A DNA stretch of 63,992 nucleotides, counting the filler, from Rhabdomonas costata (taxonomy: Eukaryota): assembly GCA_019059605.1 (NCBI GenBank). It is 30 parts of 30 records of this genome, joined end to end, with 100 filler letters (N's around TTAATTAATTAA, not from the genome) between each part and the next. Parts side by side here need not be neighbours in the genome. Positions count along the whole stretch, not along the records: positions 17,109 to 19,147 come from JAHMHO010006187.1; 29 more parts are not named here. One strand, written 5' to 3'. How positions within the stretch are numbered: position 1 is the first letter of the stretch; the number at the start of each line of letters is the position of its first letter. Shown in pieces: positions 1,758-53,331 of this stretch. The translations under genes were made by a program, and so were the position numbers. The notes under the pieces are model-generated. The model was not told where the DNA came from. It saw only the letters and a list, made by a program, of their open reading frames with translations, and ran no database searches.

Positions 1758-2169
1758 CTGATGCGTGCGTGCGTGCATGGCATAGAGCGCGGGCTGTTTA
1801 CTGATTGACTGTTGGTAACCGCTGTGGACTGACGAGCGCTGTTGGCCACATAAGTGCTCGTAAGAGGATCTTCGGAGCGAACAGTGCTGTGTGTGGAGTT
1901 CCGGCTCACTGCCGGGCGTTCCAAATGCGGTACCCTAGCCGCTGCCCAACGGGCCTTCGTTGTGCACCTACTTTTTTCAACCGGCTACCCACTCTGTTCC
2001 ATTGCTGCCCAAGTCTCTGAGTCTCCGCCCTCCATTTTTNNNNNNNNNNNNNNNNNNNNNNNNNNNNNNNNNNNNNNNNNNNNTTAATTAATTAANNNNN
2101 NNNNNNNNNNNNNNNNNNNNNNNNNNNNNNNNNNNNNNNGGGGGGAAGGGGGCTCAGAATCCAGCACAC

Positions 2170-3198
2170 CTCCTCCTTCTGCAGCACCGCCTGGAGGTCC
2201 GCGACCTGCTCGGAGGCCTCCTTGATCTTCTGCAGCCCAGTCACCAGGCGGACAGTCTTGTCCACCAGCTCCGCACGCTTCTTCTCCAGCATCAGCTTGT
2301 ACAGCGAGATCAGCTCCAGGAAGCTCTTCGGGGTGGTGTAGTTGTACCTGGAGGGTGGTTTCGCGTTTTGCATTCACGTCCATACATTCACACAGGCTCA
2401 CACAACAAATGGAACAGCTGTCTGAGCCGAGCGAAGCGGGGGGCAACAGGAGCATCAAGAAAAACCTCTTCTCCTGAGCGTAGTACTGCTTGGAGGTCTC
2501 ATTGACGATCTCGTGGCAGTACGCCATGTGTTCAGCGATGTTCTCCGTCATTTCCGGCCCTCCCAGGTCAATCTCGGAGAGGAAGCGGTTCGCCACACTG
2601 ACCAGCGCCTGGAAAAAAGAAGCAGGGGCGAAAACTTGAGGGACTTCCCCCCTACCTCCGAGAGATCTCGTCCAACGCCAACACACGCCTTACATCATCA
2701 CCCGCCACCAAACAAGAGGTGCCCAAAAGCGAGGCCCAAGGTGCCGTACGTGAACGAATGCTTAACCTATGCCAGAGGTGATTACCACGTCCAAGAAGAA
2801 CAGGACAAAGGGTTGGCGCGGGACGGAAGGGTGCAGGAATGCAACCTGGTGGGGCCAGGGGTGGAACCAGTCGATCACCGTCGTGCTGGCCAGAGCGGGG
2901 AACTGCATGCACCACTGCCGGAACTGCTCTCCCACAGGGCTGAAGCACAGCACGGCGTGCATGTTGTTCCGCACCTTGTTGATGAAGAACTCCCAACACA
3001 CGTCGCGGTTGCCGTAGTCGGGGTGCCCCGTGGCCTTGACCTCGTTCACCATGCTGCCCTCCACGCCCTCCCGCTCGTCCGCCGCGAACAGGTCGGGGAT
3101 ATTCCCCGAGGCGAGCATGTCGTTGAGGTAAACCAGCATCTGCTTGTCCACGATCTGGCTGTCGGTGATGATGAAGCAGTACGTCATGTGCATCCTTC
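2170..3198 (-). CDS. Axonemal-type dynein heavy chain, partial (AAA4 to start of coiled-coil stalk)
   Basis: Exons 3198-2846, 2608-2466 and 2347-2170 join in frame via GT-AG introns. Motifs: LNDMLASGNIPDLF, VRNNMHAVLCFSPVG, FPALASTTVIDWFHPWP, YNYTTPKSFLELI, RLVTGLQKIKEASEQV. Confidence 0.96.
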
Positions 3199-4278
3199 CT
3201 GCTCCGCAGAAGAAAAAGGCCGTGGAGTGCACCTTCTGTCATGCCAAGGACCACGAGAGTGGGGCCTGCCCCGCTCTTTCGTGGTGCGATCGCTGTGGCG
3301 AGGTGCGAAAGACCACTGCTTTGTGGTTGTGGCTGTTTGTTTCAGTGCATTCGGGAAGTGCCGTCCTCTGAGGTCACTGCCTATCAGACAAATGCTGCCT
3401 ATCAGACAGTGACGCAAACGATGGTTCTCCATGTAACGAGTTTCTGTGCATTCCTTCGAGAACTATTTGGTTGGCCTTCTTGCTGGTGGAAATATTGTTA
3501 TTGATCCTCTTATGGGCAACCTTTACGTATGGTTGGCCCTCGTGTGTCCCGTTTGCATGTCAGCTTTCAGCATGAAACAAACTGTTTTATGCGTGGTCGC
3601 CCATTTTTACTCTTTGTTCACAGAAAGGGCACTTCCCGAAGAGCTGCCCTCACCACACAGAGTCTTTAGGTATGCGGAGAACGCCCCTCCCCCCCCCTTT
3701 TTTTGCAATTGCATTTTTGGGGTAAAAGTCACGGAATATGCACAAGTGTTCGTGAAGAGTGCAAACAATTTACAAGAAAGAACGCGAGAGAGATTTGCCT
3801 GAAACAGGATGGGAATGTGAGGTGACAAAAGTGGAATTGGTGGAGGATAATTCAAAACGTCATGGGACGAAACGGAAAAGAGTGGGTCTTCTGAATCTTC
3901 GACTCACTTCGCGTTCATGCGTATACTCACCTTCCTATCGTAGAGCACATGAACGCTCGACATCGAGATGAGAAGAAGAACTGGGAGGTCCAGCTGAAAC
4001 GAGGTATCCTTATTTCCCTCTGGGTTGGCCCGCGCTAGGTACGCTGGTTGTGAGGGGTCATGGCTTCATTCAAGTCAGGCTGGAGATAGACTGTTCAAGA
4101 CTGCTCATCCATGCCTCATCCGAAATGTCGCATGAGTGAGTCGTTCTCTGACGGCAGCGACGCGCGGGCCAACCCACANNNNNNNNNNNNNNNNNNNNNN
4201 NNNNNNNNNNNNNNNNNNNNNNTTAATTAATTAANNNNNNNNNNNNNNNNNNNNNNNNNNNNNNNNNNNNNNNNNNNN

Positions 4279-17108: not shown

Positions 17109-17933
17109 CTGAGCGCTTCCGTGTTTGCGTCATGAACTGGGAAGCTCGGCACACGGAGACTGAACTGTTTGGGGGAAAGGACTTGGAGGTCGAGTCTGAC
17201 GAGTGTGAGATCGGCAGAAAGAGGAAGGGCATGCAAGGCAGAGACTCCGACGAGGGCGACTTCCGTGGGTTGTTTGAGAGGAGCTCTGGTCGCCTTTTGG
17301 TAGGGGCATACGAGAAGCTGAACAGAGATCAGGATGATCGCCGCTTCGGTCCCCCTTCTCCTGATGATGTTCGCCCCCTTGTGGAGAAACTAGCCCCGGG
17401 AACGCTCCTATTCACTGATGCTGATGGTGCCAGAGCTTACACCTCTGTCTGTAAGGATTTTGGTATCTTCATTGCTCAGGTGGACCACAACAAGGGAGAG
17501 TTTTGTCGTCAGACTGTTCGAGGCAGACTCCGGGTTGTTTCTACTCAGGGTATTGACGGTGCCTGGGGAAACTTGAAAACCTTTCTCAGAGCTCGTGGTG
17601 GTTGCTCCGCTGACCAATTAGAGAGCTGTGTGAAGGAGTTTCAGTGGCGAAGGAACTTAGAAAAGGACTCTGACCCTTTCATTTCGCTACTGTTGTGCAT
17701 CAAGGATGGTTGTTTTCAGTGACTTCCTCACCCTTTTCTCTGTGCCGTACAAGTGAAGGTATGCCGAACACATATATGTATACGAAACCCCAGTTAGTAG
17801 TGTGTACATACATGTGCGTTCTCGTATTACTCGTATTACTCGTAGCGCTGTGGTTGCGAGGTGAGGGCAAGACACACAAAGGTCTGTGACACAGTGCATC
17901 AGTCGTATCAAAGGTCTTGGGGTCTCGTGGGCC
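17109..17933 (+). mobile_element. Merlin (IS1595-family) DNA transposon; open transposase catalytic domain 17132-17722, 5' end cut by the contig edge
   Basis: IS1595/Merlin motifs VESDECEIGRKRK, GLFERSSG, LLFTD..GARAY, VDHNKGEF, STQGIDGAWGNLK, KEFQWRRN. Possible right end ...TCGTGGGCC at 17933 is tentative. Confidence 0.9.
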
Positions 17934-18058
17934 AGTAGTGTGCAAAATTTACCAAATTGCCCAATCGTGAGACGTTGGCGTCATTTCGAGGAGGCCCTCT
18001 TACGCCGCTGGTCTGTAGGGAAGAGTAACCAAACTCACGAACACACAGGGCAAGTGGC

Positions 18059-18997
18059 TCAAGACGTCGCAGATTTCTCAAACGCAGCCACGAGGCCGTC
18101 CAGGTTTTCGAGGTCCCGGGCCTCGCCGCCATCTGCCGTAAAGTCAGCAGACTCAAAGTCGCACAGCACGAACGAGCCATCTCCGTCCACCAGCACGTTG
18201 TCGAGCTTAAGATCGGGGCCGTAACAGTAGTTGGCCTGGTGCAGCGACTGCAGGGCTGCAGAGATGTGCTCCCGCAGGAGGTCCCTCGTGGGCTGCACGT
18301 TTCGCCCGTTCTTGCTCTGGCGAAAGGCATTGGCCAGGTCCCTCGCTGTGCAGGGGTACGGCCTCATGATGAGGTAGTAGTGGTCGCCGCATTTCGGGGC
18401 GGCTTCGATCTTCAGAACATGGGGGGCCAGCCCGGCACGATGCACAGTTTGGGAGACAAGATACTCCCCATTTCCCTGCGCCACCTTGGCGACGCGCGGC
18501 TCCCCACGCCCGCTGAAGACTTTCAGAAAAGTGCTGTGACCGCCCTTTGCGGTCTGAAACTCGCCGACCACCATCCACTCTTGGTGCTTCTTGAAGAACG
18601 ACGTCGTGGGAAACGCCGAAATGTCTCTCCAGATGACGGAGACAAACGCCTTGAAGGACTCCAGGGACCAGGACATGTAGTGGCTCGACATCAGGAAGTG
18701 CACCTCGGTGTCGGTGAGCCGCCTCTGACAGTGCTTCTCCAGGACCTCGATCTGGGTGACGGGGTAGACCACGCCCAGCGGCGGCGCGGGAAGCTCCTCT
18801 GTGGTGTCGGTGAGCTGCACCGCGCTCTTGTCCACGGCGTCCTCATCGAAGGGAGTTAACAGCTTGTACACCGACACGTCATCGGCGCTGACCCGGGCCT
18901 GCGTCGCCACCGCTTCTCGAAGTTCCTGGAGGGTGCGTCTTGCCAGCGTCAGCCGAGAATACCCTTTCCGGTTGTAGTCGTACACGCACATTTCCAT
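18059..18997 (-). CDS. Intronless atypical protein kinase with N-terminal ubiquitin-like (Crinkler-header-like) domain
   Basis: 312-aa ATG-to-TGA ORF. Kinase motifs RVAKV, LAPHVL, YYLIM, LQSLHQANYCYGPDLKLDNVLV and LCDFE, with only ~30 aa after DFE. N-terminal ~60 aa have a beta-beta-alpha-beta pattern (TLQELREAVA...VSADDVSVYKL). Confidence 0.85.
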   Translation of the reverse strand: MEMCVYDYNRKGYSRLTLARRTLQELREAVATQARVSADDVSVYKLLTPFDEDAVDKSAVQLTDTTEELPAPPLGVVYPVTQIEVLEKHCQRRLTDTEVHFLMSSHYMSWSLESFKAFVSVIWRDISAFPTTSFFKKHQEWMVVGEFQTAKGGHSTFLKVFSGRGEPRVAKVAQGNGEYLVSQTVHRAGLAPHVLKIEAAPKCGDHYYLIMRPYPCTARDLANAFRQSKNGRNVQPTRDLLREHISAALQSLHQANYCYGPDLKLDNVLVDGDGSFVLCDFESADFTADGGEARDLENLDGLVAAFEKSATS

Positions 18998-19891
18998 GGA
19001 GATGGGGGGGAGGGGCCAAAATCACAAACGGAGAGGAAGCTATAGAGAAAAAGAGTGTGCAATGAGCGTAGAACCAATTACAGTTATCGCCTAGACCAGA
19101 GTGTCTTGTTCAGTTAACATGAAAAATGGACATTTACCAACCCAAAANNNNNNNNNNNNNNNNNNNNNNNNNNNNNNNNNNNNNNNNNNNNTTAATTAAT
19201 TAANNNNNNNNNNNNNNNNNNNNNNNNNNNNNNNNNNNNNNNNNNNNGGGGGTGTGGGGAAAAGGGATACAGAACCTTCCATGCACCCGTGTCGGCCTCC
19301 ACAATAACCGTCTGGCGGGTCCGCAGGGCCTGACACAGATCCTCCAAGCAGTTCTCAATGGGAAAGCTGCTACTGTTGGGTTCCTGCAGCTTCATTGGTG
19401 GGATTTATGCTTCGGCATCGGCAGCCATCCCAGCCTCGAGATGGAGCAGAGGAAAATTCCATGTTCGCGTATATGAATGGAGGTAAACCGAATTGAAACA
19501 AGAAGTCAAAATTGAACACACAAGCTAAAGATGCAAAAGAATCAAAAGAAGAGTACAAACAAAAAATATTGAGCCCCGCAGTTTCAAGTCAGACGCGCTA
19601 GTTCGCAGGCATCCGGTTGGGGCTCAACTTCCACCATTCATGCGTGTCCTCCTGCACCTAAAGATACAGAAAAATAAAAAGAATATGGACGGTGGTTGCA
19701 AATGAAGGAGGAAGTTTCTGCAGTAACAATCGAGGTAGCCCAAACGAATGCAGAGCGGGAGCAAAATTGGCAACAAAATGCACCCATGAAAACGAAGACA
19801 AATAAGTTCACAGTGCATGGTCTCCAGACCTCTTGACCCCCACGCCAACTTCGCCCCCCTTCCTTGACCTTGCAACGGCCTTTGCAGGCCT

Positions 19892-20991: not shown

Positions 20992-21413
20992 CTGGAAAAC
21001 CTGATGCTGGTCTGTGAAGACCCAGAAGAGCTAGAAACAGGAATAAGAGAACAAAGTGATCCAGCCGTGCAAAAGATCGCTGAACAAGTAAAAACGCTTA
21101 CCACAGAAACAGCAAATACACGTACACAGAAATTGAACTCTCCGCTACTTTTTTTGTTCTTCTGTATCTTCTTTTTAATTTCTGATTCAACACCAATGCT
21201 CGAAAAGGCGTCAGGTGTCAAGTCAAATGATACCAAAACTCAATTTACTGAAAGCAAACTTTGGTAGCAGTTACAAACCCCCCCNNNNNNNNNNNNNNNN
21301 NNNNNNNNNNNNNNNNNNNNNNNNNNNNTTAATTAATTAANNNNNNNNNNNNNNNNNNNNNNNNNNNNNNNNNNNNNNNNNNNNGGGTGTTGGGTGGAGT
21401 GTAGGGGACATTT

Positions 21414-22353
21414 TTGTTTATGATGAGACGCACAACCAAAAATGTCCCCTACACTCCGGCCAACAACAAGATGCGCAAGAAGACCAGTACCAAGGGGGGT
21501 CTCGAATGCCTCCAGACCATCTTGAGGATGGGCGACGTGGAGGTGGTCGAGAAGATGCTCGGGTTTCTGAAGCCCGTGGTTACGTGCCCCGGTGGTTCTG
21601 GGGATCTGTCTTTCGTCCCCGGTTGCGGTTCCGAGCCCCGGTTTAAGTGTCACCGGTGCAAACGGGGGCATCTCCGTGCCTCTCACGTTCACGTTCGCCA
21701 GCTGTTCGCTGTCATCCACTAGTTCGCCTACAAAGTCCCCGTTCCTTCCGTGACTGCTGCGGTGTTTGTGGGTTACAAAACTGCGATCAAGATTGATCTC
21801 ACCTGTGGTTAGGAGGCGATGCACGTGCGCCTAGATCTACGGCCAAGCATGAAGAGCGTTCGGGGGGGGGGGTGATTCGGGTCTCGGGGGCTTGTTTTGT
21901 GTCCTTTGCAAAACAAGGCGAGGTTGAGTCCTGCTTTTTCGGAGAATGTTCTTCCCCTCATGCAGAAATTCGCCCGTTCTGGTTCCATCGTTTTCACAGA
22001 CGGTCTCAAGGCTATCGCGTTCTTGCCTCTCTCAAACCTCTGTAATCGTTTTGTGCGGCATGGAGCGAAATGATTTCCTCGTTTAGTCCAGGTACACTGC
22101 TCGATGGTACATGGGGTGACATCAAGAATACTGTTCGGGATCGTGCCATTCTCCACGACTTGATTCCCGACCACGTCAGAGAGCTTCAATGGCGGTTCCG
22201 GGTGGGAGATGATGATATCTCTTTCTGAGTTGGGAAAGGCTGTGCAGCGTCTGTTTGCTCTCTCCGCGTCCTGCAGCACTGCATGTTTTTGGACACTGCT
22301 GTGCTTCGGGACTCTTCTGGTGTCTAGATTTCCAGATATTCCGCCTGGGGGCC
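21414..22353 (+). mobile_element. Degenerate Merlin (IS1595-family) transposon
   Basis: Frameshifted fragments: Zn-ribbon-like TCPGG...FKCHRCK, VLPLMQKFARSGSIVFTDGLKA, FVRHGAK, DGTWGDIKN and HVRELQWR, collinear with the 17132 transposase. Possible end ...GGGGGCC at 22353. Confidence 0.75.
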
Positions 22354-22514
22354 ACAGGATAAACTTAATCTATGGGGGAGGGGGGCCACAGGATGAACGT
22401 ATGCAAACGCGCGCAAGATTCAGTAGCAGAAAAAGTCTGGATGGCATCATCCACAACGCAAGACTCTTTAAACCAGTTCTGAGCTCCCGTTATCCTCAAA
22501 GTCACGGGGGCCTG

Positions 22515-23421
22515 GCCTCCCACAGGACTTACATTGGACCTTCCAAACACCGTAACGTTGCTTAGCCACACTAAAAAGGGACGCAGTCACAACGAAGCCG
22601 CTCGATCACTCCAGGCCACCCAGCACCAACACAAACGACTGCAACAACCGAGGCGGCAACGTCACAATCAACCAGCCTCGTAGGACGGTTGGCAAAGTAC
22701 CTTGTTTTTGACAGTCATTGCAGCATCACGTCGATTTTCGGATTTCCGGCAGAATGCTTGTTTTAGACTGTGATTCAATTTAAGACACGGAAGTCGAAGA
22801 TTATTCGACGTGACATGTCCTTCCTGTCCCTGAGCAATGCGCCAGAGTGTTCCCCTCGAATCGCAGCCTTTGAACGAGACCTTGTCCCACGGTTTTGATC
22901 CGGTAATCCCGTCCAATTGCTTGAGGACACTCTAAAGAAAACTCCTGCCATCAGTCTGGCGCTTTTCTCCACTCCAGGGGCAGTCCGGAATTGTTTCTGA
23001 AGGTTAATGCCACTGAACTCCAAGGGCATCCGTCAACTCCTGAACCCCTGCTCGTGCTGGGAGCGAGTAACCATAAACACCACCAACACTTGCAATTACG
23101 AGACAACCCGCATTTTTTTTTCTGCTTCGTTGTGGTTCCCCTTCCCTTGCGCCAATGATGCGCCCCTTTCAACTGGAATTTGGACTATGCTACAAGAGCC
23201 AGAAAAATGCAACAGGCAAATCATATTACTTCAACCTGAATGTCCCACCTCATCATCTTTACAACCACGGTAAGAATCTCTGCCGTTGCCTCCCACAGGA
23301 CTTACATTGGACCTTCCAAACATCGTAACGTTGCTTAGCCACACTAAAAAGGGACGCAGTCACAACGAAGCCGCTCGATCACTCCAGGCCACCCAGCACC
23401 AACACAAACGACTGCAACAAC
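22515..23421 (+). repeat. 134-bp direct repeat (22515-22648 and 23288-23421), period 773 bp, second copy cut by the contig end
   Basis: The two copies are identical except one substitution (CACCGT vs CATCGT). Confidence 0.95.
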
Positions 23422-42520: not shown

Positions 42521-43165
42521 GAGGCCGCCAAACCACTCCCTTGGGTCCGCTTCACTTGTAAAAAAAGCCCTGTCCCTGTGCGACGGGAGGCAAACGTTTC
42601 GTCCGTAGATTCCCGCCGAGCTCTTGACTGCCGTGTTTATTCAACCACACCNNNNNNNNNNNNNNNNNNNNNNNNNNNNNNNNNNNNNNNNNNNNTTAAT
42701 TAATTAANNNNNNNNNNNNNNNNNNNNNNNNNNNNNNNNNNNNNNNNNNNNTCGTTTTTTTCCCCATTTCTGCCGCGTTTTTGGTGGTAGCACATTTCTT
42801 TTGGTGTTGCTGCCCTTTGCAACGGAAACCCACAATTTCAAATGGTCACCAGAAACGTTCTCATCCTGCGTTTTTTTTTTAAATGTGTAGCCCTTTTGCA
42901 ACTCATTGTTCTCTCAGAACTTTCCAATTCGTGGTTGTTTTTCTTCGACATCTTCTTGTTTTGCCCTGTTTGGCTTTCTTGGACACGCTAGATGTGGAAA
43001 TGTACCGTTTACTGCCTTGATAGGTAGCATGCTTTATGCGTATCTCTCTCGAACGGGATTGCTGCAATTACTTCACCCTGCGGTTCGTCTTCGTATTTTG
43101 TGTTATCAAGGCATGCCAGACTGTCTATGCAGCTGCTTCTACTGATTCCTTTGCTGTCAAATCAG

Positions 43166-44641
43166 AACTTTCACGGGGATATCGTACACATGGCTCGGCT
43201 TTTGGATAGCACTCGCGGGAAATCGAGCATTGGGTACACGCTAGAATCGATCACCGAACTGTCTTCGGCGCATCGGGAGGTTGCTTGGGGGGAGGTCTCT
43301 TCTGAGAAAACGGCGATTTCCATGCCGAAAGAGCTTTATCGCTTTTATCTGGAGCATTGCGAGGATGACTCGGAGTTACTCTACCGCACTTACAATAATC
43401 TGAAGGAGCTGATGCGCGGTAAACCTTCACACTTGAAGGGAAAAGGTGCGCACAAGAATCTGTGGGAATTTTACGAAAGACATTGGCGCCCCTTCGGAGA
43501 AGTCCTGACACAGATGGAAATGCGTGGGATGTACGTTGACCGCAGCGCGTTGGAAAAGCGTAAGAAAGCTCTCAGAGAGGATGTCGAGAAGCTTCGCAAG
43601 ATGTTTTGCAACAGAGTCACCCTTCTTTACAGAAAAGCCGCACAATCGGGTGACCTGAAGAAGAACGACGTCAAGCTTTGTGAGCTTCAATACCTGAACA
43701 ACCGCTCACTCCTTCAGATGAAGCGCCTGCTTTTTGATAATGGCTTTCAAGAACTCGGTTCTTCCGCGTCTCGAGCAACAGGGAAAACAGCTTCGAAAAC
43801 TGCCGTCAAATTTTGGGGCCTCGGACTCTCCCAATCTGGTCTGAGGAAGACACGCGGTAATGGAATTTCAATGAATGCTGAGACAATATCAAAGATACTT
43901 CAGAATCCTACGTTTGACGAAGGCTCCAAGTTTCGGCAGCACAAACACGAAGTATGCGATGTCATAAAGGCTCTCAAGGAGGTGAATGAGCAGCAGAAGC
44001 TCGAGCAAAGCTTTTTCCGCCCTCTGCCGGCCTTCGTCGTCCACTCCCGCATTCATGCCAGCCTGAATGTAAACACAAAGACTGGCCGGCTTTCCTGCGT
44101 CAACCCTAATCTCCAGAACCTTCCCACCCTGGCGAAGGACCGGCTCAAGCTCCGCGCGTGTTTCCTGGCCCCACCGGGGAAGGTGCTGATTGTGGCGGAC
44201 TACAGCCAAGTCGAGCTTCGGGTTCTCACTGTAGTCTCGAAGTGCCAGAGCCTTGCCCAGGACTTCAAGGATGGTGTGGATGTGCATTCGAAGACCGCCT
44301 ACATCTTATTTCCGGAAATTCAGGAAGCGGTGAAGCGAAAGGAGGTTTGCATTGATTCGCCGAACGAGGGCCCGGTCTGTTCACCTACTAGAAAGCAAAG
44401 CTTGCCGACGATTAAAGATGTTTTCCCCGACAAGCGGAAGATGGCGAAGACCGTGAACTTTGCCGTGCTGTATGGGCAAGGCGCAGCCGGCTTGGCGAAG
44501 CTTCTCAAGGTGACTTCGGAGGAAGCCAAGCGGTTCCTGGCGGACTGGAAGGCCAATCGGGAGGATGTTTGGAAATGGAAAGGCACGGTTCTAGATGAGG
44601 CTGGTGCTACTGGGGAAGTTTGCACTTTGTTGGGTCGCCCA
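43166..44641 (+). CDS. POP: Family A DNA polymerase of the POP (plant/protist organellar polymerase) type; one 1.48-kb exon
   Basis: POP-like signatures FHGDIVHMARLLDS, FYERHWRPFGEVL, TKTGRLSCVNPNLQNLP, motif A LIVADYSQVELR, HSKTA..FPEIQEAV...IKDVFPDKR, motif B RKMAKTVNFAVLYG, TLLGR. AG acceptor at 43164-43165; probable GT donor at 44642. Confidence 0.93.
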
Positions 44642-45861
44642 GTAACGGCTGCATTGCTGAAAAAGACGGCGTCCTCGGGGGCCAGTGATGCTCATGAAGC
44701 CGTACCGTTGCTTCAGGAATCCCGCACGTTGCCTGTTTTGTGGACGGGAAACTCGAGAAGGTCTTGGACTCAATCTCTGGATCACGCNNNNNNNNNNNNN
44801 NNNNNNNNNNNNNNNNNNNNNNNNNNNNNNNTTAATTAATTAANNNNNNNNNNNNNNNNNNNNNNNNNNNNNNNNNNNNNNNNNNNNAATGTAAGCACCA
44901 AGCTTGTGTTTTTTGTGTTGCGGAGCAAAACAACACCTCTCCCTCCCGTTGAATGTTCTTTGTGAATACGTGCGGGCGAGCCTGCAGAAACTGGGTAAGG
45001 GGGAATGGGGGGCCACTATGTCTGATTTTCTGGCTTGGTGGCGGAATTCTGTGTGCCCGCTTCTCTATTCTGGCCACGCCGTGGGACCAGGATACGGCAG
45101 CCCTTGCAGCAGCTCGCTATTGCAGTCGCCCATGGCGCCGAACAGCGAGAGAAAAAGCTGCGGACTTTCCGTGGAACTGTGCATCCTTCTTAGGCTGCTG
45201 GGACTGTTTGTTAGACCACTTCCGCGCGGTTTGTAAGGGATGAAATGATGCCCAAACTTGCTGCATTTCCCGGTGTCAAGACCTTCAGAAGTCAGTGCTG
45301 TCTAACCTAAGGTTTGCCATGTTTGACGCGTTGCTCGTTGGTAAAGGGTTGCTGAAATTTTTGTTTTTGTCTGATGTTTGGTTCAGCAAATGTCATTGCA
45401 AAGATGTGGTTTTTTAGGTATTATTGTTTGGGTTTCAGGGTAGCGACCCATGCGACGAATCTATAAATACTTCCGTCACTGCACCCTCTGGCAATGTGGT
45501 CAAAATGTTTTGTTTTGTCACAAAAACAGTGATATTTTCACAATCTTTTCGCTGGAATTATTTTGGTAAAAGGGCAGGGGAAATACACCTTACGCCTGAA
45601 GGGTCACAGCCAGAGTGCAAGGACAGCCTCACCCTTTTCGGCTCGTCGATAACGAAGACCTGAGTCAGCCCCCAACAATTATTTCAGACTAAAATGGGGT
45701 GTATATCTATTATGCGAAAACTCAGGGGGGTTGAGCAGGGCGAGAAAGGCCTTCTCCCGAAACCCTTTTTTCCACGAAAATTGACGAAAAAATTTTGCAA
45801 CAGAGGCGTCATAAGCTCCAAGTGGCCTGGAATTGAGCAGTGCACCGCAAGAGACCAGAAC

Positions 45862-50241: not shown

Positions 50242-51996
50242 GTATGGGTCACGCTGGTGATGGTGGTGGTGGTGGTGGTGTTCAACGGGAGCATCAACAG
50301 TCGGGCCAACAGTGCAATCCTTCGGCTGAACCCGCTCATCTCCTTCCCGTCACCATCGCTACTTTTCAAGGGAAGTTTTCTGCTTTTGTGTTCAGTAAGT
50401 GAGATTTTTTGAACCTGAATGATACCGTTCCCACGCCCTAATGGCATCCTCATTATTGCATCATTTTCGTGGTGTCATCGTTCGTTTTTTCTTATTTTCT
50501 CTGCCCCTGCTTCCGAAACTCGATACGCGTGATGGCTTTATGCAATCTTTGGTCTGGTTTCCTTCTTTCACTGCTCTTTTTTTCCGTGTCTGTTGTTCTT
50601 TCATTTCGGTGGTCGGATTGCTGATTTGAGTCCAGGCGTCGAACTTTCATGTGATGTCCGTCCCTGTTTGCAGCCTTGTGTATGTGCATAAGCATGCGGT
50701 TACAAGGATAACGCTCTTTCTTGCCTTTTTATTCAGAAGCAGTGGGGTGGCGTTGATCCTGCGGTACGCTCTGAGCTCGTTTAGCCATCGTGGGCAGCGG
50801 CCTACGGAGCCACGTCGGACTCCCCATGGAATGCGGCGATTAATGCAAGCCTGGTACTCCTGAATAGTTTCGTCAGTGTGGCACAATACGTGCAGGCACG
50901 CAACTTTTTGCGGTGCATGGAAGTGCCGACCAGATTGTCATTTTCAGGTTCCAGCACACTTCCACCAGCCTCCATCAAATGTTTCGTTTGCTTTGAATTG
51001 CAGAAGAAGAAGCAGTGTTTCCGGAAGCCTCCTAAGAGGTTCCTCCTCAAGAGAGGCGTTGTAATCCATGGTTAATAGATATGCACCCCAAGACAAAAAA
51101 ACTCGGATAGGCGGTATCGTTGAGATTCGAGAGCTACGACAAGACTTAAAATCGCTGCCTTCAATTCAATACAGGACAATAGTCGACACAACCCCNNNNN
51201 NNNNNNNNNNNNNNNNNNNNNNNNNNNNNNNNNNNNNNNTTAATTAATTAANNNNNNNNNNNNNNNNNNNNNNNNNNNNNNNNNNNNNNNNNNNNGGGTT
51301 GGTGTGGAAACTGGAAGAAGAGTGCAACCACAGTACCACATAAAACATGAAATATACAACACTGTCTCCTCTACATCGCGCTCATGAGCTGGCCGGATCA
51401 CTCTTGAGGCTGGCAAGAACTGCGCGAGTGTTCGTCGAGTAAAATCTTCGGTCCCGCAACGCATCAGCCAGCACAGAGTTGTTCACAAGGTTGAAATCAT
51501 GTGCCTGAGGTAAAGCAGTAAACCCGTGATGAGATGGAAGAGAGCCCAAGGTATGTGGAGAATGTGATATAATTACATTAGAACAGATGAATGTTCAATG
51601 TAGCCTGCAAAAGAAAAAAGAAAACATGATGTCGAATGATGACTTCACCATTACATTTCAGCGTCTCGGCACCCCACCACTCAACCACTTGCAGCAACAT
51701 GTACGTCGAGTCTCTGACGGGTCCGTAATGAAAATGCTGCAAGCCGCGAAAATGCTGAGAACGATCTGGAGTACGTCTGTTTGTGCAGGCACTGTCAGTG
51801 CGTCAATCCAAGCAGCAGGCGACGGGAATTAAAGCGGCAGCAACATAATTAATGGAAACCGACTGCTGCCACGAAATTTCAAGAATCTATATATAACTCA
51901 GCATTAATTAAATCAAAAATGACCAACAATCTCAAGAGTTAAAGGCCCAGAACATCCAAACAGAAATGACGAGCCAACAGAACTTCTGGCACTCAC

Positions 51997-53331
51997 CTCG
52001 GATCTCGAGGATAGCTGGTGAGAGTTCACCATCAGCATGGCCCTGATTTCCTCCACTACATCATCCGTTGCACCATTTCCGTCAAGACCAAGGTAACACA
52101 AGGTATGGTTTGTCTTGAGAGCCTTTGCTAAGGCGCGGGCGCCCGCCGTTCCAATGGAGTTACCCATAAGCTCGATTTCACGCAAAGGGGAACGGGAGTG
52201 AATCATAGCTGCCAAAATCTCGGCCCCACGGGTGGTGATTCGACCCCCTGCCACATGTAAGCTTCTCACATTCGTGTTGTGAGCCATAGCTTTTTCCAGA
52301 ATTTTCAGGGTTTTGTCCTGCGCCAACCTGCCTTTGAGATCCCGACAAAGGTCAAGAGAAGTTACCGCGGGATCATTCTGGTTAATCTTGTGAAAGTAGA
52401 GCTTCAGGGCACGTGGCTGCTTATTGAGGGTGAGCTCAAACTCTAACTCGCTGAGCATCAACGAAGAGATTTTATTCTCAGAGACTGTAAGGCGAGTTAT
52501 AGTGTCGTTTTCGCGCAACGCGGCCAGCAAAGGTTGGATTCCGTCATCGAGGATCTCGTTGTGGTCAAGGAACACCTCCTCAAGAGGAGAACGATTTGTC
52601 ATGATAACAGTTGCGAGTAGCTGGGCACCTTCTGGACCAAAACGGTTCCCGGTAAGATCAAGACTAACAATGCAAGTGTTATCCAGCAGTCCCTTGACAA
52701 GAAGGACAAGTCCGGGGCCAGTCAGCGTCCTTCCTCGAGGATCCTCACCGGGAGTGATCTTCAGCTCACGAAGCCTTGTGTTATTGCCAAGCAAAGAAGG
52801 AAAAGCCCGTTTCAGGGCAATCGGCTCTCGGTTGAGTGTTAGCGCATTCTCGAGGAGGAAAATACCAGCTTCAGAAATTCCGTTTTGAGAAACGTCACAG
52901 TATTGCAACGAGTCATTGTCAAACAAAGCGGTGACGATCTCGTCAACGGCTTGCTCGTTGATATCCGTTGATCGCAAGTTAAGCTCCCGCAACGTAGCGT
53001 TCTCGGACAAGGCAGCCGCGATGTGTGAGCATCCGGCACTACCCATCGGCACACCATTCACCGACAAAATTTTGAGAGTGCAATTGCTTCGAAGCCAATC
53101 AGCCAAAACTTTCGTCCCAACCTCTCCGAAAACGGATCCCGAAAGATCTAAGGACTCCAGAACAAGTGCAGTGGGAAGTTCGGGCGTCAGCAGTTGCATT
53201 GCATCGTTGTTTAGCGGACCACCAAAACTGCCAAGCTGGAGATCCAAGGTCTGCAGGGCAGTGCCTTCTTGACGAATGAGGAGAACGGCGCGCTTCAGTG
53301 CTCGCGAGGTTCTATTCAATGCAACCAACAA
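51997..53331 (-). CDS. RNI-like (NLRC3-type) leucine-rich repeat protein, long internal exon
   Basis: About 445 open codons of 28-aa LRRs (LxxNxTLxxLxLxxNxIG..GA..LA) in higher-order blocks ending L.LN++P; GTGAGT donor at 51996. Confidence 0.93.

Follow-up and report, generated by a model that had tools for sequence, protein, structure and literature searches.

A gene of Rhabdomonas costata encodes a protein, P0001, whose N-terminal module is followed by a protein-kinase-like domain that stops shortly after its metal-binding motif. We consider it probable, if modestly so, that this is an intact, host-adapted gene of a three-member family encoding a compact phosphotransferase built of three parts: an 83-residue N-terminal module, most likely of beta-grasp (ubiquitin-like) fold; a 57-residue family-specific stretch leading into the kinase; and a kinase domain that would derive from eukaryotic protein kinases and keeps all the residues of phosphotransfer. 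An earlier note had read the same ORF as a Crinkler-like effector, and the arrangement of its parts, the identity of its N-terminus and its DNA context are weighed here with that proposal in mind.

The window, meaning the whole 63,992-nt stretch of DNA that was analyzed, is a chain of 30 unrelated contigs of 2018–2039 nt each, joined by 100-nt linkers consisting of 44 N, TTAATTAATTAA and a further 44 N, so that the genuine context of the kinase gene is only the small (2 kb), unplaced contig at 17109–19147 (Table 1). The ORF on this contig is a genuine, intact protein-coding gene. An in-frame stop lies 10 codons upstream of M1, the frame is complete and uninterrupted, as the earlier note had it, and when the 2039-nt contig was shuffled 1000 times, no shuffle produced an ATG-initiated ORF of 312 codons or more (longest ORF 104 codons on average, 274 at most). 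A second protein, P0002, is likewise 312 residues long and differs at 25 of the 312, and the identity is evenly spread over the header (78/83) and the kinase (161/172). The GC content at third codon positions (GC3) is 0.81 in the header, 0.89 in the middle and 0.76 in the kinase, and the overall value lies inside the range of 0.70–0.94 found across seven Pfam-matched stretches on other contigs; the non-coding flanks of the ORF have a total GC of 0.44–0.50. P0001 carries neither a signal peptide nor a membrane segment, the highest 19-residue hydropathy being 0.94. The earlier note described an intronless gene in an intron-rich genome. Introns do exist in this genome, since a dynein AAA_8 profile in the window is split across two frames 76 nt apart; long ORFs free of interruption are nothing unusual in it, as two other contigs show with open frames of 587 and 472 codons. 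No Rfam family was matched anywhere in the window.

Table 1. Features of the kinase-bearing contig (window coordinates; a point marks features given without strand)
Feature	Position	Strand	Basis or content
Contig holding the kinase gene, 2039 nt	17109..19147	.	100-nt N/TTAATTAATTAA/N linkers on both sides
Transposase ORF P0015, 203 codons, open to contig edge	17111..17722	+	C-terminal three quarters of a probable IS1595/Merlin-type DDE transposase; GC3 0.56
Spacer between two convergent stop codons, 336 nt	17723..18058	.	holds tandem repeat 17821-17844
Complete ORF, 312 codons + stop, protein P0001	18059..18997	-	92%-identical P0002; shuffles; GC3 0.79
Minimal protein-kinase-like domain, aa 141-312	18062..18577	-	N-lobe, hinge, helix E, catalytic loop, DFE, one terminal helix
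D280-F281-E282, metal-binding DFG equivalent	18152..18160	-	invariant in 3/3 members
Catalytic loop C258-YGPDLKLDN-267	18197..18226	-	D262, K264, N267 invariant
V169-A170-K171, strand-3 ATP-anchoring lysine	18485..18493	-	K171 invariant in 3/3 family members
Stretch ahead of kinase N-lobe, aa 84-140, of no known family	18578..18748	-	conserved with P0003; no Pfam match
Header, aa 1-83	18749..18997	-	predicted strand-strand-helix-strand, acidic loop, last strand; low-confidence model

It is highly improbable that this contig stems from another organism as contamination. Its small size and unplaced status would fit such an origin, as would the absence of P0001 itself from a collection of 15 billion proteins and the provenance of its closest relative, which belongs to an environmental or assembly record, but its GC, CpG ratio and GC3 do not depart from the ranges seen in the remaining 29 contigs and their Pfam-supported exons. 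The transposase encoded beside the kinase gene matched nothing by tblastn among 72,556 plasmid records and scores far under the cut-off for bacterial IS1595 transposases.

Sequence comparison supports the assignment of residues 141–312 to a divergent protein-kinase domain with a complete set of catalytic residues and no C-lobe beyond the DFG position. The VAK, DxKxxN and DFE motifs reported previously are all present, and the catalytic set comprises the strand-3 lysine, the helix-C glutamate, the catalytic aspartate with its lysine and asparagine, and the metal-binding aspartate; K171, E178, D262, K264, N267 and D280-F-E are invariant across P0001, P0002 and a third protein, P0003. The catalytic loop is as odd as had been remarked, the usual HRD being replaced by YGP in P0001 and by YGR in P0003, and the glycine-rich loop, KGGHS, is also unusual. 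Against the Pfam Pkinase model (PF00069; cut-off 31.7 bits), P0001 (29.3 bits, E 7e-07) and P0002 (31.3 bits) score below the cut-off and P0003 (34.4 bits) above it, and the match of P0001 spans only profile positions 57–153 of 263. A profile of the three sequences gave 101 matches to solved chains at E≤0.01; the best 60 of the 101 are all canonical protein kinases, and they align just to residues ~150–295. A PADLOC search of P0001 yielded no more than a general likeness to kinases (mad6, E 7e-07; PD-T4-6).

The near absence of an activation segment and C-lobe, also noticed at the outset, is confirmed. Only 30 residues follow DFE in P0001, and thus subdomains VIII–XI are missing. When 12 proteins from the kinase searches (P0003–P0014) were compared with the contig by tblastn, nothing significant (E≤0.01) was found below position 18050 that might represent a hidden C-lobe exon, and no kinase C-lobe coding was detected in the spacer beyond the stop codon. 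The spacer does contain a 9-nt tandem repeat (2.7 copies), situated between the kinase and transposase ORFs. P0003, only 31% identical to P0001, ends at the same place, ~30 residues after its DFE; thus the truncation is a family trait.

The family is small, with three known members. At E≤1e-10 P0001 has two relatives among 1.84 billion representatives, and in word-index searches, whether the query was the protein, the three-sequence profile or the header alone, just P0002 and P0003 came up as further members. A scan of metagenome DNA with P0001 yielded no relatives, and the same scan with the profile yielded six loci, generic kinases that match the catalytic loop alone over 23–44 residues; a scan of viral contigs was likewise empty. 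One of the 30 contigs in the window carries the gene, with no second copy on the others. Homology between P0003 and P0001 begins at residue 84 of the latter, and where P0001 has its 83-residue header, residues 3–58 of P0003 form a SAM_1 domain (E 1.6e-06, above its cut-off). As judged from these alignments, the proteins appear to constitute a small family lacking a name, in which a swappable N-terminal module is combined with a minimal kinase; because the family consists of three sequences only, arguments from conservation are thin. The suggestion that the gene might be a conserved housekeeping kinase of the Bud32/RIO type is refuted: the RIO1 and Kdo Pfam models are unmatched at E≤1, and with just two relatives in 1.84 billion representatives P0001 is not a conserved housekeeping orthologue.

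A gene lacking a C-lobe in unplaced, transposon-bearing DNA could also be a dying, non-functional remnant, either of a kinase cut after subdomain VII or of an excerpt from a tandem-kinase array, and the latter possibility gains something from a BLASTP match of header residues 25–76 to subdomains IX–X of a five-kinase protein, P0004 (E 0.018). We regard this as very unlikely given that P0003 stops at the same position at 31% identity, all catalytic residues are intact, and the frame is uninterrupted with host-like GC3 across its three parts. An HMM of nine kinase domains scored the N-terminal 140 residues at -1.4 bits in P0001 and -2.1 bits in P0002; thus this region is not a displaced C-lobe, and the idea that the header might be one is rejected.

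The header of the intact gene probably folds as a beta-grasp (ubiquitin-like) domain, a conclusion drawn from structural models. The beta-beta-alpha-beta order proposed earlier for the N-terminus recurs in two independent AlphaFold runs, both of low confidence, as a strand-strand-helix-strand succession at residues 2–46 with the same order of elements. The header model has a pLDDT of 54.8 and a pTM of 0.41, with residues 54–73 below 50, and the loop at residues 48–73 is acidic (net charge -6) and probably disordered; the model of full-length P0001 (pLDDT 37.5) is useless. On comparison of the header model with 48,161 chains, the best Z scores were 3.9–4.0 and no chain reached Z 5, in a range (under 8) where a match may reflect merely a common arrangement; 39 of the best 50 chains are titled ubiquitin or ubiquitin-like and one more PB1. 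A second structural comparison, over Foldseek candidates, gave the same ubiquitin-like picture, with the PB1 domains of MEK5 and MEKK3 at Z 2.5–2.9, and the Foldseek search of the PDB itself returned nothing at E≤0.001 (best E 1.2). At the sequence level, no solved structure was matched below E 0.29, and the header has no relative besides P0002 in a word-index search at E≤10 or in an exhaustive phmmer search. An hmmscan of residues 1–141 against Pfam at E≤10 retrieved just GRHL1_C (E 0.21), with no PB1, RA, ubiquitin or Crinkler (PF20147) model, although the filters of HMMER drop most matches above ~0.1, so that a very weak resemblance could escape. The low-confidence header model thus shows beta-grasp order and resembles mostly ubiquitin-like domains, though weakly (Z at most 4.0); the same header was not found elsewhere in the 30 contigs.

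Whether such a header makes P0001 a true Crinkler (CR) effector, with an N-terminus that shares ancestry with the ubiquitin-like header of CR proteins and a kinase that serves as payload or regulator of a toxin deployed in conflicts among organisms or inside the genome, depends on features that point in both directions. In the excerpted text of PMC5289972, CR headers are predicted ubiquitin-like folds bearing an LxLFLAK motif placed, in two accounts, on strands 2–3 or on strand 3, further CR headers are helical domains with no relation to these, and kinases are found among CR C-termini. P0001 has a corresponding layout: the header occupies the very N-terminus, a signal peptide is lacking and the C-terminus is enzymatic. 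In P0003 the kinase follows a SAM head, which is helical, as helical headers occur in other CR proteins (PMC5289972, in the part excerpted). The segment VSADDVSVYKL, put forward in the earlier note as the counterpart of the Crinkler motif, is present at residues 36–46, and its VSVYKL (residues 41–46), on predicted strand 3, fits a relaxed form of LxLFLAK/LxLWKV only: VxV replaces the LxL triad, which is described as conserved across all organisms, and strict LxLFLAK and LxLWKV are absent from P0001. Nor does HV[LIV]xxP, a pattern for the HVLxxP that ends the DWL domain as defined in the excerpt of PMC6131194, occur anywhere in the protein, which has no DWL domain. The language-model neighbors of residues 1–83 are three Mucoromycota clusters with Atlas scores of 0.85, 0.85 and 0.82, the third of which has PF20147 Crinkler in 16% of its members; at scores under 0.9, as here, one in three shuffled proteins finds a match too. 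The scan of full-length P0001 against Pfam at E≤1 returned kinase models only, so that no nuclease, NTPase or other toxin domain was found in the whole protein at that threshold, or in residues 1–141 at E≤10. The CR toxin module is described in the excerpted text of PMC5289972 as a nuclease of the REase or HNH kind that is often accompanied by an NTPase or kinase, and the kinases there are coupled to REase domains, whereas P0001 has no nuclease.

The nearest parallels within this class are CRN/CR proteins with kinase C-termini, such as CRN8 of Phytophthora infestans, which in the excerpts of PMC5289972 and PMC6131194 share with P0001 a small predicted ubiquitin-like module at residue 1, a C-terminal kinase, no clear signal peptide, seemingly exchangeable heads and mobile DNA nearby, here a transposase gene 336 nt away. 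Compared with the proteins described in those excerpts, P0001 does not match the Pfam Crinkler model and lacks LxLFLAK, HVLxxP and the DWL, REase and NTPase domains, its kinase is truncated after subdomain VII, and the expansion typical of CRN gene families is not seen, with one of 30 contigs carrying the gene and three members known. On balance P0001 appears Crinkler-like in layout while its membership is unproven, and true membership strikes us as fairly unlikely. The assignment made in the earlier note was not supported, there being no PF20147 match, strict motif, toxin domain or second copy in the 30 contigs, and the toxin or anti-parasite role attached to it may be entertained only conditionally.

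The link of Crinkler effectors to mobile elements, cited in the earlier note, has a counterpart here, in that the neighboring ORF, P0015, encodes a probable IS1595/Merlin-like transposase. It matches NF033547 over profile positions 60–214 of 215 (E 1.6e-12; 47.8 bits, below the cut-off of 75) and PF12762 more weakly (E 0.0023; 18.4 bits, below the cut-off of 27), and it lies tail to tail with the kinase gene. The kinase gene might thus be cargo of this transposon, or have been captured by it, and spread with it. The two genes are convergent and close on a 2-kb contig left unplaced, as is usual for repeats, and a second, frameshifted transposase of the same kind is present on another contig at 21876–22228. 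That decayed copy, however, has no adjoining kinase, no other DNA in the window matches contig 17109–19147, and GC3 contrasts sharply between the kinase and transposase genes (0.79 vs 0.56). Among the marks considered for Merlin/IS1595 elements (terminal inverted repeats and 8–9 bp target duplications), long or terminal inverted repeats were not seen in the contig, which ends inside the transposase ORF. Transport as cargo is accordingly quite unlikely.

Most known kinases that stop directly behind the DFG motif are either bacterial effectors or belong to a small set of ancient housekeeping enzymes. Bud32/PRPK, RIO and Kdo (KdkA/WaaP) are small kinases with a short C-lobe ending soon after the metal-binding aspartate. 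P0001 is similar in size and in its short C-lobe, and residues 243–310 match the NCBIfam Kdo kinase model PRK01723 weakly (E 2.4e-04; 20.2 bits against a cut-off of 142), but its best matches, among those listed, are canonical protein kinases. Signaling kinases of the Ste11/Byr2 and MEKK2/3–MEK5 types are headed by SAM, RA or PB1 domains, have complete catalytic domains and act in conserved pathways; SAM and beta-grasp heads are both protein–protein interaction modules. The likeness lies in a SAM (P0003) or predicted beta-grasp (P0001) head before a Ser/Thr-type kinase, whereas the catalytic domain of P0001 is incomplete and its header matches no PB1, RA or ubiquitin Pfam model. According to the excerpted text of PMC12756638, the effector kinases OspG and NleH of enteric bacteria are without subdomains VIII–XI yet autophosphorylate, and OspG becomes active when ubiquitin or E2~ubiquitin is bound to it, a requirement that hints at what a ubiquitin-like module might do next to a minimal kinase. 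That subdomains VIII–XI are missing is a trait shared with P0001 rather than evidence of kinship; as described in that excerpt, OspG and NleH are proteins that bacteria secrete and that contain no ubiquitin-like domain themselves, whereas the gene for P0001 belongs to a eukaryote and has host-like codon usage, and neither name appears among the matches listed (the best 60 of 146 and the best 60 of 101). In a limited literature search, no description was found of a eukaryotic kinase with a ubiquitin-like or SAM head that is devoid of subdomains VIII–XI.

If P0001 works, as we propose, as a compact ATP-dependent phosphotransferase, it may autophosphorylate or act on a closely held partner. Its chain ends one helix after the DFG equivalent, so that both the activation segment and the substrate-docking lobe (subdomains VIII–XI) are missing. 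Lacking a platform for substrates, the kinase would rely on the N-terminal module for recruitment, oligomerization or activation; the SAM domain at the same position in P0003 fits an exchangeable interaction head. The ORF with its codon bias, the kinase motifs, the conserved early stop, the exchange of heads and the adjacent transposase are observed here; the beta-grasp fold, enzymatic activity and the function of the head we infer. A bolder proposal, which we rate as unlikely, is that P0001 represents a eukaryote's own OspG-type minimal kinase, with a built-in ubiquitin-like domain (SAM in the relative) that replaces the C-lobe by docking to activate the kinase or by head-to-tail assembly, and that it belongs to a new Crinkler-like branch of conflict proteins, each a header joined to a payload, in the transposon-rich DNA of a free-living or flagellate protist.

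At present, P0001 is the product of a well-supported orphan gene of unusual architecture and is not a demonstrated toxin. If its header were truly of Crinkler type, that class of effectors would gain in range and in the variety of its payloads. A minimal kinase encoded by a eukaryote, descended from eukaryotic protein kinases and equipped with an exchangeable ubiquitin-like or SAM head would in turn be a compact natural test case, showing how little of the kinase fold suffices and how an accessory module replaces the substrate-docking lobe.

The kinase gene, an ORF whose product is termed P0001, is a real gene. An in-frame stop sits 10 codons upstream of its first ATG. Shuffling its contig 1000 times gave longest ATG ORFs with a mean length of 104 codons and a maximum of 274, and 0/1000 attained 312; the complete, intronless frame of 312 residues described in the earlier note is thereby borne out. 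The GC3 of the gene is 0.79 overall (0.81 in the header, residues 1-83; 0.89 in the middle part, residues 84-140; 0.76 in the kinase part, residues 141-312), the total GC of its non-coding flanks is 0.44-0.50, and seven Pfam-matched stretches measured on other contigs have GC3 values of 0.70-0.94. Its codon usage is thus that of the host, evidence against an origin by contamination. A relative in a public assembly, P0002, also has 312 residues and is 92% identical to P0001, its 25 differences leaving identities of 78/83 in the header, 48/57 in the middle part and 161/172 in the kinase part; the header of P0002 is conserved to the same degree as its kinase part.

The spacer TTAATTAATTAA, with 44 N on either side, has 29 copies in the window versus 0 expected by chance, and cutting at these spacers gives 30 pieces of 2018-2039 nt ordered by falling length. 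The window consists of 30 unplaced contigs strung together. Features on separate pieces are not genomic neighbours, and the real context of the kinase gene is therefore only 17109-19147 (2039 nt). The other 29 pieces, though no neighbours of the gene, still serve to sample the assembly it comes from. Every open frame in the window with 110 codons or more, 139 in total, was scanned with Pfam. The matches were fragments of commonplace eukaryotic genes (dynein AAA_8, NAC, His_Phos_1, the prolyl oligopeptidase N-terminal domain, family A DNA polymerase, LRR_6 and mitochondrial carrier), with no further kinase and no Crinkler domain. Since the dynein AAA_8 domain is split over two frames, introns exist in this genome, and the exon pair (GC3 0.82-0.94) is direct evidence that short ones occur. 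Two other contigs hold open frames of 587 and 472 codons without interruption; by that measure the intronless 312-codon ORF is nothing exceptional in this sample. The top solved relatives of the polymerase frame are bacterial Pol I enzymes, the apicoplast PREX polymerases being far weaker (E ~4e-11).

Features located in the window, with positions counted along its whole length
Feature	Position	Strand	Details
Linker between pieces	1-63992		100 nt: 44 N + TTAATTAATTAA + 44 N
Dynein heavy chain, two adjacent exons	2141-3238	-	AAA_8 profile 78-193 and 193-241; ~76 nt between
IS1595/Merlin-type DDE transposase ORF (P0015)	17111-17722	+	203 codons; intact as visible, cut by contig edge
9-nt tandem repeat	17821-17844		CTCGTATTA x 2.7; spacer between transposase and kinase genes
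Kinase gene ORF	18059-18997	-	312 codons + stop
Near-palindrome	21388-21465		Very start of contig; 35-nt arms, 89% complementary, 8 nt apart
Decayed second transposase, same kind	21876-22228	+	Frameshifted; contig 21385-23421; tblastn with P0015, E 0.002
Open frame with family A DNA polymerase domain	43028-44788	+	587 codons; E 6.5e-47; runs into contig end
Uninterrupted frame, RNI-type leucine-rich repeats	51916-53331	-	472 codons; LRR_6, E 2.4e-18

The neighbouring ORF, P0015, aligns with profile positions 60-214 of 215 in an IS1595 transposase model (E 1.6e-12), its 47.8 bits falling short of the 75-bit cut-off, and weakly matches Pfam DDE_Tnp_IS1595. The IS1595-type domain defines in eukaryotes the Merlin superfamily, of which there are reports from several protist groups, and the related IS1595 family is described with one transposase gene (PMC8101967). 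The GC3 of P0015 is 0.56, well under that of host genes and unlike that of the kinase gene, and tblastn against 72,556 plasmid records gave no match for P0015. The decayed copy on another contig yields peptide pieces that include ...SIVFTDGLKAIA... and ...GTLLDGTWGDIKN..., and the near-palindrome at the start of that contig could mark the end of a transposon or form a hairpin. The 2-kb contig of the kinase gene shows no evident inverted repeats. P0015 and the kinase gene are convergent, with 336 nt between their stops, and given this arrangement and the decayed copy elsewhere, the association of the kinase gene with mobile DNA is real in positional terms.

Residues 191-292 of P0001 align with profile positions 57-153 of 263 in Pfam Pkinase (E 7e-07) at 29.3 bits, just below the cut-off of 31.7; P0002 scores 31.3 bits and P0003, a distant relative with 31% identity, 34.4 bits. 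A profile of these three sequences matched 101 solved chains at E ≤ 0.01, of which the best 60 are all canonical protein kinases aligned only to residues ~150-295, MSK1 being the best among the matches listed (E 2e-05). No RIO1, Kdo or APH model of Pfam matched P0001 at E ≤ 1, and NCBIfam gave weak kinase-type matches only (LanKC, 4.6e-06; Kdo kinase, 2.4e-04, residues 243-310). Invariant in all three members are K171 (V-A-K), E178, D262, K264 and N267 within C-Y-G-P/R-D-L-K-x-x-N, and D280-F-E; the usual HRD is YGP in P0001 and YGR in P0003, with DFE in place of DFG. The motifs singled out previously (VAK, the odd catalytic loop CYGPDLK and DFE) are present, and the active site, as judged from these residues, is chemically complete.

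P0001 stops 30 residues past DFE, in a tail in which the models put one helix, in keeping with the near-absent activation segment and C-lobe reported earlier. Such an ending could be an annotation artefact or reflect a missed exon, a reading rejected on two findings: P0003 stops at the same point despite its low identity, and tblastn with the 12 proteins of the kinase search (P0003-P0014) returned nothing significant (E ≤ 0.01) at contig positions lower than 18050. On these findings the absence of the activation segment and subdomains VIII-XI is a family trait.

When 1.84 billion representatives were searched exhaustively with phmmer, 13 sequences scored E ≤ 0.001. Two of these are true relatives, P0002 and P0003 (the latter at E 3.6e-15, spanning residues 84-284 of P0001); the remaining 11 are generic kinases touching the catalytic core only. 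No extra member was found in 5.8 billion clusters by word-index search with the protein, the profile and the header alone, or in viral and metagenome contigs scanned at the DNA level. By these comparisons P0001, P0002 and P0003 form a tiny, unnamed family, and its small size across the databases searched refutes the alternative, raised in the earlier note, of a conserved housekeeping Bud32/RIO orthologue. Another protein from the phmmer search, P0004, found as a weak match to the catalytic loop, has 1533 residues with five tandem complete kinase domains at a period of ~290-300 residues.

The header has no sequence relative besides P0002 by phmmer or word-index search, and none among PDB sequences better than E 0.29. 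A full-length AlphaFold model of P0001 (pLDDT 37.5), useless as a whole, places in the header strands at 2-7 and 12-17, a helix at 23-33 and strands at 41-45 and 74-78, and the header folded alone (pLDDT 54.8, pTM 0.41) shows the same order with a short helix at 52-55. The strand-strand-helix-strand-strand order is that of the beta-grasp, and the beta-beta-alpha-beta start noticed from the sequence is recovered in these low-confidence models. When the header model was compared exhaustively with the structures of 48,161 chains, none reached Z 5, the best being a ubiquitin fragment (1gjz; Z 3.9, rmsd 2.8 over 49 residues); among the best 50 rows of this comparison, judged from titles, 39 are ubiquitin or ubiquitin-like and one is a PB1 domain. 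Re-examined Foldseek candidates agree (best Z 4.0). Foldseek against the PDB gave no match at E ≤ 0.001. The header model has beta-grasp topology, and the header probably adopts the beta-grasp fold itself, so far as a weak model indicates. The header is without a signal peptide or membrane segment, and residues 48-73, modelled without confidence, are acidic (net charge -6).

Homology of P0003 to P0001 begins only at residue 84, which argues that the conserved family unit is residues 84-312; residues 3-58 of P0003 match a SAM domain (SAM_1, E 1.6e-06, above cut-off). The unit comprises a 57-residue lead-in with no assigned fold and the minimal kinase, preceded by an N-terminal module that, judging from one distant relative, appears exchangeable. 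This apparent head swap, seen in P0003 alone, is the best evidence for the modular reading of head plus kinase advanced before.

CR proteins combine a header, with a predicted ubiquitin-like fold or elsewhere an unrelated helical domain, with enzymatic C-termini, ~1/6 of which contain kinases, these being coupled to REase nucleases; the class is present in free-living eukaryotes too (PMC5289972). The gene for P0001 resembles Crinklers in its header-plus-payload layout and head swap, but differs in that every sequence-level membership test run was negative and no nuclease is present. Pfam gave no match of the header to Crinkler PF20147 and at E ≤ 10 only a chance-level GRHL1_C (E 0.21), and the strict motifs LxLFLAK, LxLWKV and HVLxxP (as defined in PMC6131194) are absent, with only the relaxed pattern VSVYKL at 41-46. 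Language-model comparison of residues 1-83 gives as neighbours three Mucoromycota clusters of small proteins (0.85, 0.85 and 0.82), the third with the Crinkler Pfam family in 16% of its members, which at such scores is only a lead. Owing to the failed tests and the absent nuclease, P0001 is not filed as a Crinkler; its kinship with true CR proteins is unlikely, and it is described as working like a header-plus-payload protein. What had been observed in the earlier note is confirmed, and the interpretation given there finds partial support.

The make-up of its active site argues that P0001 binds ATP and transfers phosphoryl groups; lacking a C-lobe, it would presumably have no substrate docking of the ordinary protein-kinase type. 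Among known kinases, the deletion of subdomains VIII-XI seen in P0001 is that of the bacterial effectors OspG and NleH, which autophosphorylate despite it, OspG being activated by binding of ubiquitin or E2~ubiquitin (PMC12756638). By this analogy, the N-terminal module may supply what the minimal kinase lacks: the beta-grasp module of P0001 would give the kinase a docking, oligomerising or activating surface, and the SAM domain of P0003 would fill the same role. The key structural claim stands on a weak model, and the family is too small for comparative tests. The gene is best described as encoding a minimal kinase headed by a probable interaction module, and it belongs to an unnamed family of three; its architecture is both unusual and testable.
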